Shown here: positions 9,142-20,102 of the stretch, piece after piece
Layout of the letters: each line of letters starts with the position of its first letter
Numbering within the stretch: the first letter of the stretch is position 1
Virus record (IMG/VR): IMGVR_UViG_3300048502_000040
Location: 1-23,900 of that record
DNA length: 23,900 bases
Source: a virus
Direction: 5' to 3' (one strand)
Made by a program: the position numbers and the translations under genes
Notes under the pieces: model-generated
The model's database searches: none
Seen by the model: the letters and a program-made list of their open reading frames with translations, nothing else
What the model was told of the DNA's origin: nothing

Positions 9142-9388
9142 AGTGGACGGATCAGGGAGGTCACCACCCTATCTCAACTAGGCGGGGCAGGGCGCTTCGG
9201 CCACACCAGCTTGAGCTTTGCCTGACCAACCGGGGCGGACTCCCGGCACGCGCCTTGGCGGAGGGTTGGTTAGGGACGTTATCTCCTTTGCTATCATACT
9301 CTTACGAGACATCTGACACTAACTCACTCATGCAATCGCACACGTCACGCGCACGGGCACACACGTACAGGCGGTACAGTTTAGCGTG

Positions 9389-9401
9389 TAACTGATTGAT
9401 A
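9389..9401 (-). promoter_or_regulatory. IHF-consensus site
   Basis: Reverse complement TATCAATCAGTTA matches WATCAANNNNTTR. Confidence 0.5.
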
Positions 9402-9559
9402 ATGAAAAAGTTAGCATAAGACGTACACATTATGGCGTATTGTGTACAGACGTGCGCGGCGGGCGTTCGGTTGCGTTCGGCGGCGGGCCGCGTGTGTGCG
9501 GTTGTGAATAGCCTAGCCTAACCGTTCACACTGGCGTGTATACCGTACGCGGTACGCTC

Positions 9560-10270
9560 ACAAGGCGGGCGGGCACAGGGCAAAGGATCACACACAAGGC
9601 GGGCCGCGTGTGAGCGCCACACAGGGCCGCACGGCGGCGGGCACGGTTGCACGTCACAAGGCGGGCCGCGTGTGCATGGCGTGTGCATGGCGTGTGCATG
9701 GCGTTAGACGTGTGAGCGTATGAAATACCGTTCGCGTTTACTGTGTGCCCTGTGTATGTGTCATAGGGTATCGGGCACAGGTAGACGTGTGGACGGTTGC
9801 ACGTTCGGGCGGTTAGTTATGTGCAAACAGTTTGGAGCATACGCGGCACAGGTTAGCGTGTGGCGTTCGGCGGTATGTGTACGACACACAGGCGGGCACA
9901 ATCACGCGTAGACGGGCACAGGCGGGCCGCGTAGACGTTCGGCGGGCGTTCGCACGGTACGCGATACAGGCGGCGGCCCTGTGTGCCATGCGCGGCGGCG
10001 GCCCGCGTTCGCGGTTGTGATCATGTGCGCATACGTGAGACAACCGAACGGGCCGCACACGCGGCGGATTGATACAGGCGGGCGTGTGAGCGTACGCGAT
10101 ACCGTTATACGGGCACAGACGGGCACGGGCGGCCCTGTGTGCGTTCTATCCTGTGTGAACGTGTGCCCTGTGCTGATACGTTCGGGCGGCGGCATGGCGG
10201 CCTGTTTATGTGCGAATAGTTTGGAGCATAAAAAGGCGGCCCGCCTGTGTAAGCTCGGGCCGCGTGTGAT
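9560..10270. repeat. low-complexity region of short dispersed repeats
   Basis: ACAAGGCGGGCCGCGTGTG x2, GCATGGCGT(GT) x3 in tandem, and TTATGTGCRAAYAGTTTGGAGCATA x2 (9817-9841, 10206-10230). Confidence 0.7.
10230..10263 (-). terminator. intrinsic terminator for the 10287-10454 gene
   Basis: The minus strand reads GCGGCCCG-loop-CGGGCCGC-CTTTTT. Confidence 0.65.
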
Positions 10271-10286
10271 CCTGTGCGAACGGGCG

Positions 10287-10454
10287 TTAGATTTTTACGC
10301 CCGCCGCCCGTGCCGCTGCATAGTTCGCGTGTGAGTGTGCATCAAAATAGACTTCAAACTCACCCGTGCCCGCGTCTATCAAAGGTTCGGCGGTTGCGGT
10401 TGTGTGATCCTGTGTGGCGGCGATTGCGGCGGTACGTGTGCGTAAAGTTGCCAT
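10287..10454 (-). CDS. 55 aa hypothetical protein (not in the ORF track)
   Basis: MATLRTRTAAIAATQDHTTATAEPLIDAGTGEFEVYFDAHSHANYAAARAAGVKI*, preceded by CGGGCAAAGGA and followed by a terminator. Confidence 0.65.
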   Translation of the reverse strand: MATLRTRTAAIAATQDHTTATAEPLIDAGTGEFEVYFDAHSHANYAAARAAGVKI

Positions 10455-10508
10455 TGTCTTTTATCCTTTGCCCGTGTTATCCTTTTTCTAGTTCGGAGGT
10501 ATCACACA

Positions 10509-10607
10509 ATGCGTTATGCTTACTTGCTTCTACCAGTCGCCGCCGTTCTATATGCCGCGTTCGCATTGCGTACGGCATTAGACGCGGTACTAACTTCTAT
10601 TCGCTAA
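10509..10607 (+). CDS. 32 aa single-TM peptide (not in the ORF track)
   Basis: GGAGGT RBS; MRYAYLLLPVAAVLYAAFALRTALDAVLTSIR*. Confidence 0.65.
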   Translation: MRYAYLLLPVAAVLYAAFALRTALDAVLTSIR

Positions 10608-10656
10608 CGCCACACAACCGCCGCCCGCCGCGTTAGTGCGGGCAAAGGATCACATC

Positions 10657-11070
10657 ATGAATAAGACAACCGCCGCCGCCCGCATCGCCGCCCGTACCAT
10701 TCACCCGTTAGATTCTCATGTGCCCGCCGAACGTGCGGCCCGCATCGCACAGGATCACATCTTGAGTGTGCCCGCATTGCGTGAGATAACGCCCGCCGAT
10801 ATTCTCGCCGCACACAAGGCGGCGGCCCGTGCGGTTGTGCTAGATTCGCCGATACCATCGCCCGCCGAATGTGACGCACAGATGCGCGAATTACACGCGG
10901 GCGATAGTGCCGCGTGTGCCGCGTGTGCAACCGCCGCCCAAACTATCGCGGCACTCACTGCGATATTGACACAGGCGGGCGGCGGCACATGCGCGGATTG
11001 TGGCAACTTGGCGCATGAGTTAGCGGCGGGCATATGTGTACACTGTGCATTCGCCGCGCATATGGCGTAG
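10657..11070 (+). CDS. Ala-rich hypothetical protein with CxxC pairs
   Basis: AAAGGA RBS in the conserved leader; CAAC, CADC and CVHC. Confidence 0.65.
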   Translation: MNKTTAAARIAARTIHPLDSHVPAERAARIAQDHILSVPALREITPADILAAHKAAARAVVLDSPIPSPAECDAQMRELHAGDSAACAACATAAQTIAALTAILTQAGGGTCADCGNLAHELAAGICVHCAFAAHMA

Positions 11071-11166
11071 ACGCACACACGCCCGCCTGTGCTATACTTT
11101 GCACGTACCACTAACCGCAACCGCAACCGCCGCCCGCCGCGATAGACGGGCAAAGGACAATATAAA

Positions 11167-11799
11167 ATGGCAATCTTAGACGCAACTTTCAATCTTGCGG
11201 TACGTTCGCTAACCGTTCGCGCACTGTTCACGGGCACACAGTTTGCAGATTATGCCGCCATGAAAAAAGACTTTCAATCACGCGGCATTCTTACGGTAAA
11301 TGTGAACTTCTCAGACGGTACGATATTCGGCGGCGCGGTTGATAATTGGCACTTCCGCGCATGGCATGATTCGGCGCATCTGGCGGTAGATTCTGACTTC
11401 ACACAGGCGGGCGAACGGGCGGCGAGTGTCTACCAGATTGCGCAAGTATTCGCCGCGTACGGTATCAACCCGGTAACTGGTAGATGGGCGGCGCTGATTG
11501 ATTGTGAAGTGAATGCGCAAGCTGAACACTTCTACAGGTTCGGCGAGTTTGTTCAGGATCAATCAGCATTCACACTCGCACAGTTGCGGGATGTGTACAA
11601 AGTAGAATTACCGGATGCGTTCGCGGGCACGGATACCGCCGCCGCCTATTGGAATGCGGCACTCGCCGCCATGCCGCCCGCGCAACTTGACGTATACGCC
11701 CGCCCGCTTGTGCCGCCCGCGTACCTGCTAGACTATGCGGGCATCTTTGTTGATTGCATGGCGAACGTGCGGCGAGACATTCGCAACCGCCGCCGCTAG
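11167..11799 (+). CDS. hypothetical phage protein with an FRAWHDxxH motif
   Basis: Conserved leader and RBS; HDSAH...F..AGE may be a metal-binding motif. Confidence 0.75.
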   Translation: MAILDATFNLAVRSLTVRALFTGTQFADYAAMKKDFQSRGILTVNVNFSDGTIFGGAVDNWHFRAWHDSAHLAVDSDFTQAGERAASVYQIAQVFAAYGINPVTGRWAALIDCEVNAQAEHFYRFGEFVQDQSAFTLAQLRDVYKVELPDAFAGTDTAAAYWNAALAAMPPAQLDVYARPLVPPAYLLDYAGIFVDCMANVRRDIRNRRR

Positions 11800-11891
11800 T
11801 CTAACCGCCGCCCGTGCTCACATAGACGGGCGGTTGTCTTTCAGGATCACAACCGCCGCCCGCCGCGTTAGGACGGGCACAGGGTAAAGCA

Positions 11892-12467
11892 ATGGCATAC
11901 GATTACACACAAGACATAAAGGCATGGCGGCGGGCACTGTGCCGCGTATACGCCCGCGCAACCGCCGAACAGATACAAGCGGGCGGCGAGTGGTACGCGA
12001 ACGCGGCGGCGGTACTAGCGGCATTCTTAGACGTGTGGACGGGCACACAGGCGGCGGCGGTATGCGCGGTATTATCGCCGCGTGTGGCGTGGAAGGAAAA
12101 CATCACGGGCGTTCGCAAAATGCACAAGGCGGCCCGCGAACGTCTACGCGTGTGCCCCACGGTTGCGGGCACTCGCCGCAATGTAGAACGCGCGTGGACG
12201 ATTGCACAGGCGGGCGATACTAGCCTAGTGAGCGGGCCGAAAGTGTCTAGCTTTTATGCGAACCTGTGCGGCGATTACAACCGCGTCACAATAGACATAT
12301 GGGCGGCGCGGGCGGCGGGCGTGAGTGATTCCGTTATGTCGCACTTGGATAGGCGGCGGTATACCGCACTGGTAACCGCGTATCGTTTGGCGGCGATGGA
12401 CTGCGGGCACACGCCCGCGCAATTTCAGGCGATTGTGTGGACTGTTACACGGGGGAATCATGAATAA
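11892..12467 (+). CDS. HhH-GPD/EndoIII-like DNA glycosylase-related phage protein
   Basis: WY..A, AVLSPRVAW..N, SGPKV..F..NL, VTIDIW and QAIVW resemble a helix-hairpin-helix with catalytic Lys/Asp. Confidence 0.55.
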   Translation: MAYDYTQDIKAWRRALCRVYARATAEQIQAGGEWYANAAAVLAAFLDVWTGTQAAAVCAVLSPRVAWKENITGVRKMHKAARERLRVCPTVAGTRRNVERAWTIAQAGDTSLVSGPKVSSFYANLCGDYNRVTIDIWAARAAGVSDSVMSHLDRRRYTALVTAYRLAAMDCGHTPAQFQAIVWTVTRGNHE

Positions 12468-12663
12468 CACGGCGGCATTATTGGACGCGGCACAGGCGGG
12501 CATAGACGCGGCCCGCGTAGACGTTCGGCGGGCACGGGCGGGCGTGGACGCGGCGGCGGCATTCTTACGCGGTTGCACATGTAAAGACGGGCGGTTGCCG
12601 TGCTCTAAGTGTATCGCCGCCGCAACTAAACGCTACACACGCGAACGGGGGAACCTGCGATGA
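12460..12663 (+). CDS. small hypothetical protein (CxC..CxxC)
   Basis: Overlapping operon arrangement, GGGGG RBS. Confidence 0.55.
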   Translation: MNNTAALLDAAQAGIDAARVDVRRARAGVDAAAAFLRGCTCKDGRLPCSKCIAAATKRYTRERGNLR

Positions 12664-12947
12664 TGAAAGGGAACATATTCCGCATACTAACCGAACGGCG
12701 AAACGTGCGCGGCATCCGCCGCATTCTCGCCGCGCATGGATTGGATTACACTTTGTTTCATGCGTTCGGATGTTTCGGCGGTACGCCCGAATCGTCTACC
12801 ATCATAGAATTGTGCCTTGTGACTCGGGCACAGGCGGTTGCGGTTGCGGTTGCAATCGGGCGGGCGAATAATCAGCAATGCGTGATGCTGCAAACGGTAT
12901 CAGGTTCGGCGGTATTGCTAGACACAGGCGGCACAGGTAAACACTAG
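12660..12947 (+). CDS. hypothetical protein
   Basis: ATGA-coupled ORF. Confidence 0.65.
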   Translation: MMKGNIFRILTERRNVRGIRRILAAHGLDYTLFHAFGCFGGTPESSTIIELCLVTRAQAVAVAVAIGRANNQQCVMLQTVSGSAVLLDTGGTGKH

Positions 12948-12991
12948 CAGACGCACACAGGGCCGCCAGCGGCGGCAGAATAGGGCACAGG

Positions 12992-13354
12992 ATGAGCGAA
13001 CCAGCGATGAGTCTACCAGCGGTTAGGATCACAGGCGACACGGGCCGCCCGCAACAGTATGCGGGTGAGCATGGATGCCGCACGTACATCAGCGAACAGG
13101 GCCGCGTGTGTATGGCGGCGGAAACCGTGATTCATGATGGGCGGATGTACTGCGATGCACATGCGCCAGCGGCGACAGGGCGGGCGGCGGGCCGCATCCC
13201 CAGCGGTGTACAGGCGGAGTTAGACGCGGCGGCGGTACGCACAGGCGACACGGCGGCGCTGATCCTTGCGCGGCACAGGTTGGGCATCATATTCAGTTTA
13301 TCAGCGGTTGAACTTGAGCGGGTCACAGCAGAGCTTTACCAGCGGACAGTTTGA
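12992..13354 (+). CDS. hypothetical protein
   Basis: 120 aa ORF with C...C...YCxxH; the start may be 13007. Confidence 0.6.
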   Translation: MSEPAMSLPAVRITGDTGRPQQYAGEHGCRTYISEQGRVCMAAETVIHDGRMYCDAHAPAATGRAAGRIPSGVQAELDAAAVRTGDTAALILARHRLGIIFSLSAVELERVTAELYQRTV

Positions 13355-14730: not shown

Positions 14731-16281
14731 ATGCAGTTTGTACAGCAGTTCAAAGCAGCCCGGCGCGTCAGCACTCCTTTGGTCGCAGTGCGCACCTTCG
14801 ACGCCAAGTCCACCCTCGACCAGATTCGCAAACTGTTGGGCGATACCCTGAAGGACACCCCCATGATCCTGTGGGACATCATGAACGGTGTGCGGGCACT
14901 CACTGAGAAGGGCAAGGATGAGCTTGCCAACATCCTGCAAAAAGCAGACCTCATGCAAGAAGCGACCATCGGCGACGACGGTCTCAGCGTCACCCTCAAG
15001 ATGGCAGAGTTCGCCCGCGAGGATGCCATCATTTTCATCAGCAATTCCCATCTCTTCATGGGCAAAGCAGCGAACATCACACAAGGCATATGGAACCTGC
15101 GCGACAGCTTCAAGGCACAGGGTAACATGCTCGTGCTTCTGTGCCACCCCGGTGCGACCCTGCCCGTGGAATTGTGCAACGACGTGCTGATGTTGGATGA
15201 ACCCCTGCCAACCGTCGCAGAGCTTACCGCGACCGTGAAAGACACGTTCAAATTCGCTAAGGCCGATGCCCCCAGCGATGAGGTAATTGAGAAGGCGATG
15301 GACGCCCTTGTCGGTCTCCCAGCTTTCCCAGCGGAGCAGACGACAGCGATGTGCCTGAGCGTGGACGCCAAGTCGCGCAAAGGTGCCCTCGACATGCCCG
15401 AGCTATGGGGGCGGAAGCGTAGCATCATCAGCCAAACCCCCGGCCTGAGTGTGTGGGAGGGTAAGGAGCGGCTGGAAGACATCGGCGGAGTGGAAGTAGT
15501 CAAAGAGTTCTACCGCCGCGTGATCGAAGGCCGGGACGCCCCCAAAGTCATCATCTTCATGGATGAAATTGAGAAGGCATTCGCGGGCACGGGCACGGAT
15601 ATGTCGGGCGTGAAGACCGAGCTAACGGGCAGCATGTTGTCGTGGATGCAGGACACGGGCATCGTCGGCAGCATCAGCATCGGTGTCCCCGGTGTGTCGA
15701 AGTCACAGCTTGCGAAGGCCATCGGCGGGACGTACGGAAAGCCCGTCATCAAGTTCGACCTTGCCGCCATGCAGTCGGGCATCATCGGCAGCAGCGGCGC
15801 GAACCTCCGCGCGGCACAGAAGACCGTGGACGCCATCAAAGGTGACGGCAAGGTCTTTGCCATCGCTACCTGCAACAGTATCAACAGCCTGCCCCCCGAG
15901 CTTCAGGGAAGGTTCAACCTCGGGACGTTTTTCTTCGACGTGCCCACCCCCGAAGAGGCAGCGGTCATATGGAACATCTACCGCAAGCGGTACCAGTTCG
16001 CCGACAGCGACCCGACCCCGGCACATGTAGGCTGGACAGGCCGCGAGATCGAAGAGTGCGCACGTAAGGCGTGGAGCTTGCGGTTGACGCTGGAAGAGGC
16101 GGCACAGTACATCGTACCCGTCATCAAGTCCCGCGCCGACAGCATCGCCCATCTGCGGCAGTCGTGCAGCGGCAAGTACCTCAGCGCATCGCACCCCGGT
16201 GTGTATGAGTGGAGCGGCGAGACGGTACAGGCATCACTCCCCGTCTTCAGCGGTGACAGCGGGCGCAAGGTGCGGGCATAA
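14731..16281 (+). CDS. Ycf46-like AAA+ ATPase with swapped Walker B/Walker A segments
   Basis: Degenerate N-terminal AAA domain (LPVEL..LDEPLP), then DIGG, IIFMDEIEKAF, GVPGVSKS and FAIATCNSINSLPPELQGRF...FFFDVP. Confidence 0.9.
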   Translation: MQFVQQFKAARRVSTPLVAVRTFDAKSTLDQIRKLLGDTLKDTPMILWDIMNGVRALTEKGKDELANILQKADLMQEATIGDDGLSVTLKMAEFAREDAIIFISNSHLFMGKAANITQGIWNLRDSFKAQGNMLVLLCHPGATLPVELCNDVLMLDEPLPTVAELTATVKDTFKFAKADAPSDEVIEKAMDALVGLPAFPAEQTTAMCLSVDAKSRKGALDMPELWGRKRSIISQTPGLSVWEGKERLEDIGGVEVVKEFYRRVIEGRDAPKVIIFMDEIEKAFAGTGTDMSGVKTELTGSMLSWMQDTGIVGSISIGVPGVSKSQLAKAIGGTYGKPVIKFDLAAMQSGIIGSSGANLRAAQKTVDAIKGDGKVFAIATCNSINSLPPELQGRFNLGTFFFDVPTPEEAAVIWNIYRKRYQFADSDPTPAHVGWTGREIEECARKAWSLRLTLEEAAQYIVPVIKSRADSIAHLRQSCSGKYLSASHPGVYEWSGETVQASLPVFSGDSGRKVRA

Positions 16282-16286
16282 GCCTA

Positions 16287-16736
16287 ATGGATAACTTCTT
16301 CTCATTCATCGACCAGCATGGCCCGGTACCAGCACATAAACCGGAGCTAGGGCCGTGCTGGTTATGGATGGGACAGCACCACAAGCAAGGCTACGGCATG
16401 TTCAGCAAGCGCATCGAAGGGAGGAAAAACAGCAAGACATACCTAGCACATCGAGTAGCCTATGAACGGCTAATCGGGCCAATCCCAGAGGGCTTAGTTC
16501 TGGATCACCTTTGCCGCAATACAGGTTGTGCCAACCCGTACCATACAGAACCAGTACCACAGATTGTAAACATTTTGAGGGGTGAGGGCTACGCAGCTAA
16601 GTGTGCTAGAAAAACTCATTGCAAACGTGGGCATTCTCTGATAGTATGTCCTTGGAATAATGTAAAGCGTCGGTATTGTCCAGAGTGTAGGCGGATAAAC
16701 AGGCGCAACAAATACGCAACACGAAAGGTAGGGTAA
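16287..16736 (+). CDS. HNH homing endonuclease
   Basis: CWLW.G...GYG.F...AHRVAYE..IGPIPEGLVLDHLCRNTGCANPYH..KTHCKRGH. Confidence 0.9.
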   Translation: MDNFFSFIDQHGPVPAHKPELGPCWLWMGQHHKQGYGMFSKRIEGRKNSKTYLAHRVAYERLIGPIPEGLVLDHLCRNTGCANPYHTEPVPQIVNILRGEGYAAKCARKTHCKRGHSLIVCPWNNVKRRYCPECRRINRRNKYATRKVG

Positions 16737-16740
16737 CTAT

Positions 16741-17199
16741 ATCAGCGAGTATTCAGAAGCAACCACCGAGTTCAAAGATGCTGACCTCCTCATTGAGGCG
16801 CTGGCAGCGGTCGGTTACAATCAGATCGAGAACTGCATCGGCAAGCCTATGCCCCTCGTCGGGTTCCAAGGCGACTACCGTACGCAGGACGGCGAAGGCC
16901 ACACGAAGGACGCAGACAAGGCGCTGAAGGCGGACATAATCATCCGGCGTAAGTATGTCGGCGGCGCGTCCAACGACATTGGCTTTGTCAAGGGGAGCGA
17001 CGGCAAGTTCAAGGCGGTCATCAGCGATTACGACAGCAGCAGGCACAACGCCGCATGGCTGGCGAAGTTGAAGGGTGAGTACGCGGAGATCAACGTCGTC
17101 AAGACCATGAAGCGCATGGGCGTGAAGATCACCGGGCGCACCACCCGCAAGAACGCACAGGGCCAAGAAGAGGTCGTCTACAATTACGCCAAGGCGTAA
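16741..17199 (+). CDS. DUF1257/Ycf35-like protein, probable ATC start
   Basis: (I)SEYSEATTEFKDADLLIEAL...GFQGD.R...ADIIIRRKYVGGASNDIGF...ISDYD. An upstream in-frame stop lies at 16729. Confidence 0.8.
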   Translation: MSEYSEATTEFKDADLLIEALAAVGYNQIENCIGKPMPLVGFQGDYRTQDGEGHTKDADKALKADIIIRRKYVGGASNDIGFVKGSDGKFKAVISDYDSSRHNAAWLAKLKGEYAEINVVKTMKRMGVKITGRTTRKNAQGQEEVVYNYAKA

Positions 17200-17241: not shown

Positions 17242-17436
17242 ATGGCGAAGCAGGGCACAGTGGTAATAAATAAGGTTACCGGGGAATTTAGCATAGACCT
17301 AACAGGCTACAAGGGTAAAGGCTGTAGTGTAGACGCAGCGCAGTTTACCCGTGGTGGTCGGGTTACTAAAGATGTAAAAAAGAAAGAATGGAACTTGACC
17401 CAATCGGCAGCACAGCAGCAGGAGCAAAAACAGTGA
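17242..17436 (+). CDS. DUF2997-like small protein
   Basis: VINKVTGEFSIDLTGYKGKGC...K.EW with a Gln-rich tail; the position after DUF1257 fits. Confidence 0.75.
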   Translation: MAKQGTVVINKVTGEFSIDLTGYKGKGCSVDAAQFTRGGRVTKDVKKKEWNLTQSAAQQQEQKQ

Positions 17437-17918
17437 AGACGATTCAACTAACTAAGGGTAAGGTGGCGCAGGTAGACGACGGTGACTACCTTACCCTTAG
17501 TGCCCACAAGTGGTGCGTACTAAAGACAAAGTATGGCCTTTGGTACGCTAAGCGGCGCAAGGGCAAACTTACAGTTTATATGCACTGTGAAATATTGGGG
17601 AAAAAGGGCGTAGACCATGAGGACGGAAACGGTCTAAACAATCAGCGATACAACCTGAGAGAAGCAAACTCAGAGCAAAATAACAGGAACCGCAACAAGT
17701 TTTTTACTAAGAAGCCTGCCACTAGCCTTTATAAAGGGGTTTGCAAAAAAGGTAGCAAATGGGTAGTTCAAATATCCGTTGACAAGAAACCCTTTCATGT
17801 GGGATACTTCTCCACAGAGATAGAAGCAGCAAAGGCATACGACGCAGCGGCAATCGAGCACTACGGCAAGTTTGCTAAACTGAATTTTCCAGAGGAGAAG
17901 ATATGCGAGAAGGTGTAA
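17433..17918 (+). CDS. HNH-AP2 homing endonuclease
   Basis: IQLTKGK.A.VD..D, VDHEDGNGLNNQRYNLR, S.YKGV...W..QI...GYF..E.EAA.AYD.AA...G.FA.LNF. Confidence 0.9.
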   Translation: MKTIQLTKGKVAQVDDGDYLTLSAHKWCVLKTKYGLWYAKRRKGKLTVYMHCEILGKKGVDHEDGNGLNNQRYNLREANSEQNNRNRNKFFTKKPATSLYKGVCKKGSKWVVQISVDKKPFHVGYFSTEIEAAKAYDAAAIEHYGKFAKLNFPEEKICEKV

Positions 17919-18226
17919 TAAAAATAAAAGCTGACGGAACGGTTCGCTTTATAAATACCCCAGAGTTAGCAACACTAGCACCTAACGCAACCGTGCGTCG
18001 AGCTTCTCAGGTAGAGCCTGATGTTGCAGTCTATCGCTGGGTGTTTCACAGCCTGCGGTGTCTGTTCGGTGAACGAGGACTGGTGGCCGACTGGACACGG
18101 GACTGGCGCATTCTTTGGCGCGTAAACTTGGCCCCTGTAGGCGGCCCTGTACTGCCCCAGAGATGGTGGGTTCGTTGTGATGCTATCATCGCTGAAGTTG
18201 ACTGGTTGAATGAAAACTTCATCTAA
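17903..18226 (+). CDS. hypothetical protein of the AAA/DUF1257 module
   Basis: DGTVRFI..RRASQVEP..W.V.L.PVGGP..AEVDWL; GAGGAG RBS. Confidence 0.7.
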   Translation: MREGVIKIKADGTVRFINTPELATLAPNATVRRASQVEPDVAVYRWVFHSLRCLFGERGLVADWTRDWRILWRVNLAPVGGPVLPQRWWVRCDAIIAEVDWLNENFI

Positions 18227-18236
18227 AAAATAGTTG

Positions 18237-18265
18237 TTGACAGCCTTCCCCGCATTTAGTAAAAT
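18237..18265 (+). promoter_or_regulatory. sigma70-type promoter
   Basis: TTGACA-N17-TAAAAT. Confidence 0.75.
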
Positions 18266-19304: not shown

Positions 19305-20102
19305 ATGACAACTAAGGTTCCGCAGAATGTACTGGACTCGGTTTGGGATTCTACCTCAGCCGATTGGCACCGACATGATAACGGTAAGGGCTGGGTGTAC
19401 AAAACTGCCAACGTTGATCCAACAGTTTACCTTCACCCAACCTCAATTGTCTACGGCAATGCGCAGGTCTACGGCAATGCGCAGGTCTTCGGCACTGCGC
19501 AGGTCTACGGCGATGCGTGGGTCTTCGGCGATGCGCGGGTCTTCGGCGATGCGCGGGTCTACGGCGATGCGCAGGTCTTCGGCGATGCGCGGGTCTTCGG
19601 CGATGCGCAGGTCTACGGCACTGCGCAGGTCTCCGGCGATGCGCGGGTCTTCGGCGATGCGTGGGTCTACGGCACTGCGCAGGTCTCCGGCGATGCGCGG
19701 GTCTACGGCAATGCGCAGGTCTTCGGCGATGCGCGGGTCTACGGCACTGCGCAGGTCTACGGCACTGCGCAGGTCTCCGGCACTGCGCAGGTCTACGGCG
19801 ATGCGTGGGTCTTCGGCGATGCGCGGGTCTTCGGCACTGCGCAGGTCTCCGGCGATGCGTGGGTCTTTTCCCCTCTGTACATACAGGGAACTCGTCACGC
19901 GGTAACGCTTTGCAGCCACAAGCAAATAGCTATTGGGTGCCACGTCCACGACATTACGGAGTGGCAAAAAAAGTACCGTGCCATCGGTAAGATGGAGGGC
20001 TATACTCCAGCGCAGATCAAGGAGTATGGGGCGTACATCGTACTGCTGGCAGCGGCAGCCAAAGTTGCAATCAAGACTGCCAAAACAAAGGGGGCGAAGT
20101 GA
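19305..20102 (+). CDS. hexapeptide-repeat (left-handed beta-helix) phage protein
   Basis: 23 V[YFS]G[NDT]A[QRW] repeats, then an IAIGC..H...W tail; AAGGAG RBS. Confidence 0.85.
   Translation: MTTKVPQNVLDSVWDSTSADWHRHDNGKGWVYKTANVDPTVYLHPTSIVYGNAQVYGNAQVFGTAQVYGDAWVFGDARVFGDARVYGDAQVFGDARVFGDAQVYGTAQVSGDARVFGDAWVYGTAQVSGDARVYGNAQVFGDARVYGTAQVYGTAQVSGTAQVYGDAWVFGDARVFGTAQVSGDAWVFSPLYIQGTRHAVTLCSHKQIAIGCHVHDITEWQKKYRAIGKMEGYTPAQIKEYGAYIVLLAAAAKVAIKTAKTKGAK
19449..19862 (+). repeat. 23 x 18-nt tandem repeat
   Basis: Unit GTC THC GGC RMT GCG YRG. Confidence 0.95.

Follow-up and report, generated by a model that had tools for sequence, protein, structure and literature searches.

To our knowledge, all AAA+ proteins other than those described here carry Walker A before Walker B. 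Among the closest described systems is cyanobacterial Ycf46, whose operon is stress-induced and whose ATPase is reported to interact with KaiC (PMC13683863). Proteins of the classic AAA clade have no sensor-2 arginine (PMC5039278); SRH arginines act on the nucleotide of the neighbouring subunit, and sensor 2 on that of its own subunit (PMC5039278; bioRxiv 10.1101/2022.06.23.497301). Non-circular permutations, in which segments are reordered and catalytic groups keep their 3D positions, have been described in, for example, DNA methyltransferases and are rarer than circular ones (PMC10085705). A literature search that took in few subscription journals found no report of a non-circular permutation in AAA+ or ASCE NTPases.

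A phage Ycf46-like ATPase with Walker B ahead of Walker A

The window analysed here, a stretch of 23,900 nucleotides, belongs to a contig of 98,567 bases that we assign to a tailed phage because it carries terminase, portal, major head protein, helicase and primase-helicase genes. One of its genes is a single open frame of 516 aa without internal stop, and we confirmed that its product is a Ycf46-like double-domain AAA+ ATPase whose second domain (D2) is permuted (Table 1). The first domain (D1) lacks both the P-loop lysine and the Walker B acidic pair, leaving D2 as the sole candidate active site; the N block matches canonical relatives. In D2, the DIGG motif (starting at D250, position 15478) is followed by the Walker B block (VIIFMDE from V273, position 15547; WMQD ending at 15654), then by the Walker A block (I311-I369, 15661-15837) and finally by ATCN and LPPELQGRF. 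The moved Walker B strand-helix, of 40 residues (270-309), thus lies N-terminal of the Walker A unit (310-371). An initial annotation, made from the letters of the DNA, had described this arrangement as an internal segment swap within one open frame, and its coordinates and motif positions proved exact.

Table 1 Positions in the window of the permuted ATPase gene, its domains and motifs, and its conserved neighbours.
Feature	Position	Strand	Evidence or remark
Permuted Ycf46-like AAA+ ATPase gene	14731..16281	+	Inactive-looking D1 and permuted D2; fold match to Cdc48/p97 D1-D2
D1, AAA-like	14731..15435	+	Collinear with normal-order relatives; model residues 1-483 against p97 210-763
DIGG motif and helix alpha0, up to junction 1	15478..15537	+	G267 95% conserved; alpha0-alpha1 couplings
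Relocated Walker B unit (beta3, DEIEK, pore loop 2, alpha3; residues 270-309)	15538..15657	+	PF00004 57-94; coupled to sensor-1 strand and alpha2
Walker B D278-E279	15562..15567	+	Conservation in 477
Walker A unit (beta1, P-loop, alpha1, beta2, pore loop 1, alpha2; residues 310-371)	15658..15843	+	PF00004 4-52
Walker A GVPGVSKS	15682..15705	+	Invariant K324; A, G or S at position 323, a deviation resembling that of MCM
Sensor 1 N382	15874..15876	+	477/477
Toggle position 393 (Arg in 392 relatives, Gly in this protein), followed by the arginine finger R394, itself invariant	15907..15912	+	
Sensor-2 position R438	16042..16044	+	Arg here and in 83 others; mostly Ala when 393 is Arg
DUF1257 (Ycf35-like) partner gene	16849..17199	+	PF06868 E 1.9e-8; at 160/182 permuted loci
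DUF2997-like partner gene, 64 aa	17242..17436	+	No direct Pfam match; one iterated profile with annotated DUF2997 seeds
Conserved accessory ORF of this gene cluster	17903..18226	+	66 homologues at the loci fetched, L161 and L162 among them
DUF3150-like partner gene, 297 aa	18296..19189	+	phmmer E 1e-13 to an annotated DUF3150 protein of a Manganitrophus plasmid; at 159/182 permuted loci

The permuted order is shared by a large family

Two out-of-order partial matches to PF00004 had been predicted, and a piecewise scan returned them: residues 268-308 (the Walker B part) match profile positions 57-94 and residues 317-365 (Walker A to alpha2) match positions 4-52, with residues 373-396 matching positions 100-124. 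When the blocks were swapped back in silico, the BLAST score rose against every one of the 213 normal-order relatives, and its median increased from 125 to 177 bits. The permuted protein matched nothing in a PDB sequence search and no NCBIfam family, as compared to 11 families for one normal-order cousin, so that family scans overlook proteins of this kind.

Walker B precedes Walker A in all 120 best homologues (50-92% identity) and in at least 147 further representatives of 50%-identity clusters, where the matches listed still reach E 1e-148. Altogether, at least 477 distinct permuted relatives were collected by sampling centred on the query, amongst which the spacing at the three junctions is nearly fixed: G253-D278 is 25 aa in 457, W305-G318 is 13 aa in 469 and R360-T380 is 19 aa in 431 of them. 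The order is also found in a complete genome of a cultured Acidobacteriota phage, Tunturi_3 (PP885686.1), whose gp103 is 47% identical to the query. We fetched 240 loci with a family alignment from bacterial genomes (mostly Acidobacteriota MAGs, with Nitrospirota, Armatimonadota, Planctomycetota and others), IMG/VR and metagenomes; some were cut or frameshifted, and none had Walker A before Walker B. An apparent loss of the B block at one locus (L267) was rejected, a divergent B block being present there before Walker A.

The permuted proteins form a single clade

Phylogenetic trees were built with FastTree from 130 sampled permuted proteins, with the blocks reordered for alignment. All 130 grouped together at the end of a long stem (support 1.0 in one run and 0.956 in the other), and the sister of this clade is a normal-order, mostly mobile-element subfamily of the Manganitrophus type. 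Trees of the N, A, B and C blocks separately recovered the permuted clade with at most two intruders. Within this query-centred sample a single rearrangement event is the simplest reading, and further independent origins are possible. As the normal order is common to all other AAA+ proteins that we know of, the change is taken to have run from normal to permuted.

We propose that one internal rearrangement in an ancestral mobile-element Ycf46-like AAA+ gene would have put the Walker B strand-helix before the Walker A unit. Homology and coevolution suggest that the spatial sheet and helix packing were kept and that just three connecting loops were rewired. Most likely, the A-B segment would first have been duplicated in tandem, after which the first A and the second B would have been lost. 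Similar Ala-Pro words stand ahead of both strands in normal-order proteins and may have helped such a duplication. No duplication intermediates (A-B-A-B or B-A-B) were seen among the 477 permuted and 213 normal-order proteins, nor, as weak evidence, among proteins longer than 903 aa.

The rewired domain is predicted to retain the AAA+ sheet

AlphaFold2 modelled the protein with a pLDDT of 92.6 for the whole chain and of 94.6 (pTM 0.90) for D2 alone. The whole-chain model matches Cdc48/p97 D1-D2 (Z 18.4, rmsd 4.4, 405 residues aligned), and the D2 model matches NVL, spastin, Pex1/6 and Vps4 at Z 15-16. In an Atlas shape search, 259 of 262 residues (rmsd 1.1) align to an independent model of a close Acidobacteriota cluster, as compared to 223 of 262 for Ycf46-type clusters, a shortfall of 39 residues that corresponds to the length of the moved block.

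Strand neighbours were examined by pseudo-likelihood coevolution over the 477 sequences (286 effective). The top four pairs were Walker A-sensor 1 (z 6.7), Walker B-sensor 1 (z 6.0), Walker A-beta5 (z 4.2) and Walker B-beta2, the weakest of the canonical pairs (z 2.4), and the remaining six had z values of at most 1.8. Helix couplings were canonical as well, linking alpha0 to alpha1 (254-323, 257-327, 261-331) and alpha3 to both alpha2 (305-367, 309-367, 297-356) and alpha4 (299-388). Because coevolution recovers the canonical neighbours, the predicted strand order across the sheet is beta2, Walker B, sensor 1, Walker A, beta5, which is that of AAA+ proteins in general.

D2 accordingly shows the AAA+ sheet 2-3-4-1-5, with the sensor-1 strand between the two Walker strands, and a helical lid, as judged by coevolution, model and structural matches; it departs from AAA+ proteins in that Walker A does not come before Walker B in the chain. 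Its strands follow one another as beta3, beta1, beta2, beta4 and beta5 instead of beta1 to beta5, and are thus homologous by descent in a different topology. These data support the view that the wiring alone would have changed, the spatial sheet read in chain order being 3-1-4-2-5 rather than the usual 2-3-4-1-5. Helices alpha3, alpha2 and alpha4 would each cross two strands in the same way, so that no crossing loops are needed. The initial annotation had argued that the swap is feasible on account of parallel core strands starting on the same edge, and this reasoning holds: the strand order implies three same-face crossovers, each shifting two strands in the same direction. Its broader claim, a non-circular permutation with the catalytic residues retained, is likewise supported by the Pfam order, family conservation, the confident model and coevolution, as is an unchanged 3D layout.

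Catalytic residues are conserved

K324, E279, N382 and R394 are invariant (477/477); position 278 is Asp in 471 members and Glu in the other 6, and position 325 is Ser or Thr throughout (477/477). The family therefore carries the Walker A lysine with its Ser/Thr, a Walker B of the form hhhhDE, and an SRH with sensor 1 and arginine finger, as expected of AAA+ proteins. Inteins tend to persist at essential motifs, and two long members contain one, each with a homing endonuclease: that of P0268 (HNH type) lies in the P-loop, and that of P0143 (LAGLIDADG type) immediately ahead of the sensor-1 Asn. The Gly preceding the Walker A lysine is often replaced by Ala or Ser in the permuted family, and a comparable deviation, GxxxxGAKS, is known from active MCM helicases (PMC5039278). 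Pore loop 1 mostly has no aromatic residue (L/I-V/I-G), as is also the case in normal Ycf46, which weakens a reading as a threading unfoldase and leaves room for a non-threading mode.

At one normal-order viral locus (L190:3401-4308), the ATPase gene carries an insert of ~900 bases that separates the Asp codon of Walker B from the Glu codon. By eye this insert resembles a group I intron (it follows T and ends in G), and it had no Rfam match at gathering score.

A second arginine alternates between the SRH and sensor 2

The SRH of the phage protein had been described by its GRF word. The arginine finger is indeed present, but the G is not the canonical glycine: it occupies position 393, and the SRH is two residues short. 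This shortening is found in 475 of the 477 permuted proteins (LxxRF, compared to LRxxRF of normal Ycf46). Two proteins, P0240 and P0244, are permuted yet have a long canonical R-A-G-R-F SRH, by either ancestral retention or regain through recombination, and the SRH deletion is thus separable from the permutation.

Exactly one of positions 393 and 438 is Arg in all 476 scorable members: 392 have Arg393 only, 84 have Arg438 only (sensor 2, WTGREI), and none has both or neither. The query phage protein is of the cis form, with Gly393 and Arg438. On a tree built without these two columns, each state switched 33 times, a count that depends on the FastTree topology and could be inflated by recombination. 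On supported branches, 24 of 24 independent pairs change together (sign test p 1.2e-7), and by corrected mutual information the pair ranks 2 of 95,785 column pairs. An SRH with R-x-x-R is the rule in normal-order relatives, and their sensor 2 is Ala or Ser in 212/213 cases, as expected of the classic clade; the only one that lost the first SRH Arg carries a sensor-2 Arg.

Given that SRH arginines act in trans and sensor 2 in cis, the coupling finds its best explanation in a single composite site requiring exactly two arginines. By analogy with standard AAA+ geometry, it points to an active site shared between subunits and may be taken as indirect support for catalysis and oligomerisation.

The ATPase is encoded with DUF1257, DUF2997 and DUF3150 partners

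At 140 of 182 permuted loci, the flanking sequence that was fetched contains all three partner genes, and normal-order relatives with the same operon were found on plasmids and viral contigs. The Tunturi_3 counterpart of the DUF2997-like gene matches PF11211. The phage protein resembles Ycf46-like proteins in having a degenerate N-terminal AAA domain with one active-type AAA domain, and in its linkage to DUF1257/Ycf35 and DUF2997; it lacks their R-x-x-R SRH and, in having a sensor-2 Arg, departs from them again. Judged from sequence, the permuted family is a derived sister lineage of the Ycf46-like family rather than a typical member. Because the normal-order cousins have the same operon and motifs, the permutation as such would seem to be neutral for function. 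Literature searches on DUF2997, DUF3150 and DUF1257, in which few subscription papers were covered, returned no reported function.

Two HNH endonuclease genes (16287-16736 and 17388-17918) are inserted inside the cluster. Elsewhere, Tunturi_3 gp96 (L161:9696-10655) is annotated as 'HNH endonuclease' and is by sequence a DUF3150-like partner of the ATPase cluster, so that this annotation is apparently wrong. A strong sigma-70-like promoter match (11 of 12) lies at 18237-18265, just upstream of the DUF3150-like gene. The ATPase gene itself had no sigma-70 promoter call immediately upstream. Further away, short GC-rich repeats, both direct and inverted, form dense families among small ORFs in the region 9300-13250 (for instance three 36-nt copies at 10613, 11122 and 11848); they are possibly regulatory or origin-related. 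An 18-nt tandem repeat, coding for a hexapeptide, occurs in the gene of a YdcK beta-solenoid protein at 19305-20102 (PF18836 E 9e-31).

Alternative explanations

That the order results from misassembly, or from a one-off mutant of this contig, is refuted by the family and has a vanishingly small probability: hundreds of independent sequences from several assembly sources, as well as the complete cultured phage, have the same order and junction lengths. It could also be posited that the Walker B block was acquired by recombination from a different AAA gene. The short B-block tree (38 columns), in which two normal-order proteins intrude, leaves some room for this; however, the block retains Ycf46-specific words (DEIEK, GxxxDxSG, WMQD) and groups in the same clade as the other blocks, and we regard a foreign source as quite unlikely compared to internal rearrangement.

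Alternatively, the canonical chain topology could have been kept, so that the first strand would fill the beta1 slot while the motifs would have moved between strands, giving a differently built or dead site. Sequential structure aligners do still give Z ~16 to classic AAA domains, but these alignments end ~39 residues short, each block is homologous across its full strand-plus-helix length, and coevolution favours the canonical spatial neighbours over the pairs that such a topology predicts (first strand-beta5 z 0.9, S1-beta2 z 1.0, WA-beta2 z 1.0), all of which makes it highly improbable. Another explanation accepts the rewiring and holds the domain to be an ATP-binding switch or scaffold instead of a processive ring motor, in line with the mostly non-aromatic pore loop 1, the frequent Ala or Ser in place of the Walker A Gly and the degenerate D1. 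Selection for binding only would not, however, demand that E279, N382 and R394 be invariant and that exactly two stimulatory arginines be kept, and the A-K-S deviation also occurs in active MCM helicases (PMC5039278); we therefore consider this role rather unlikely.

A probable rewired Ycf46-like motor

Taken together, a rewired Ycf46-like AAA+ motor with a composite arginine site is very probably the best explanation as a whole. We predict with high confidence that the protein is a working ATPase, and most likely it would assemble into a Cdc48-like ring in which the D1 tier is inert and the D2 tier active. Each site would be completed by the neighbour's R394 and by a second arginine, supplied in trans from 393 or in cis from 438. 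On balance, the ring would probably remodel or disassemble a protein target together with the DUF1257, DUF2997 and DUF3150-like partners.

This family is likely to provide the first case in nature of an AAA+ domain permuted in a non-circular way, active as a ring motor with an undescribed P-loop topology (3-1-4-2-5). It would also amount to a replicated experiment made by nature, the second stimulatory arginine having moved ~33 times between trans SRH and cis sensor-2 positions. Walker A before Walker B has been regarded as fixed in AAA+ proteins, and a large, diverse phage and prophage lineage now suggests that the core tolerates rewiring. This bears on how P-loop folds change topology, and it lets folding and coupling be tested readily in a motor that has been rewired. 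The choice between an SRH and a sensor-2 arginine is otherwise treated as a fixed clade marker that separates classic AAA from other AAA+ proteins; the strict either/or at 393/438 makes the interchangeability of the two testable by two point changes. Tunturi_3 on Tunturiibacter, a cultured phage and host, provides a system for finding the role of the Ycf46-DUF1257-DUF2997-DUF3150 module.

Comparison with known systems

Dual-wield NTPases (PMC10949312), which also have an atypical P-loop topology, were considered and rejected as unrelated, and the permuted DNA methyltransferases have a fold different from that of AAA+ proteins. The meiotic clade (Vps4, spastin, katanin) has an extra Arg directly before the finger (PMC5039278), as do the 392 permuted members with Arg393, and spastin matches at Z 16.2. 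It differs in its MIT domain and canonical order, whereas the phage protein has an AAA-like N-terminal half and Gly393 and falls outside this clade. Since the rest of the protein is of Ycf46 type, the meiotic clade is not the parent and the RR motif would be convergent.

The best structural matches are type II rings of the Cdc48/p97, NVL/Rix7 and Pex1/6 type, at Z 18.4 over 405 residues for the whole chain and Z 16.2 for D2. Such rings have an aromatic pore loop. They differ from the phage protein in their canonical chain order, in their N-domain and in having no sensor-2 Arg (PMC5039278), and are 16-22% identical to it.

Tunturi_3 gp103 (XOB77284.1) is permuted and is followed by DUF1257 and DUF2997 genes, but is annotated merely as 'ATPase' and carries Arg393 instead of a sensor-2 Arg; the main text of the paper on its isolation (PMC11924767) makes no mention of AAA or Walker motifs. 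Normal-order Ycf46-like proteins include those of mobile elements (WDT73634.1 from a Ca. Manganitrophus plasmid and WP_013524972.1 from Thermovibrio) and cyanobacterial and plastid Ycf46 (Synpcc7942_0417; PMC13683863). They share with the phage protein an inactive D1 with an active-type D2, the DIGG, DEIEK and WTGAEI motifs and the DUF1257/DUF2997/DUF3150 operon, and differ from it in having Walker A followed by Walker B, an SRH two residues longer and a Walker A Gly that is kept in 207/213.
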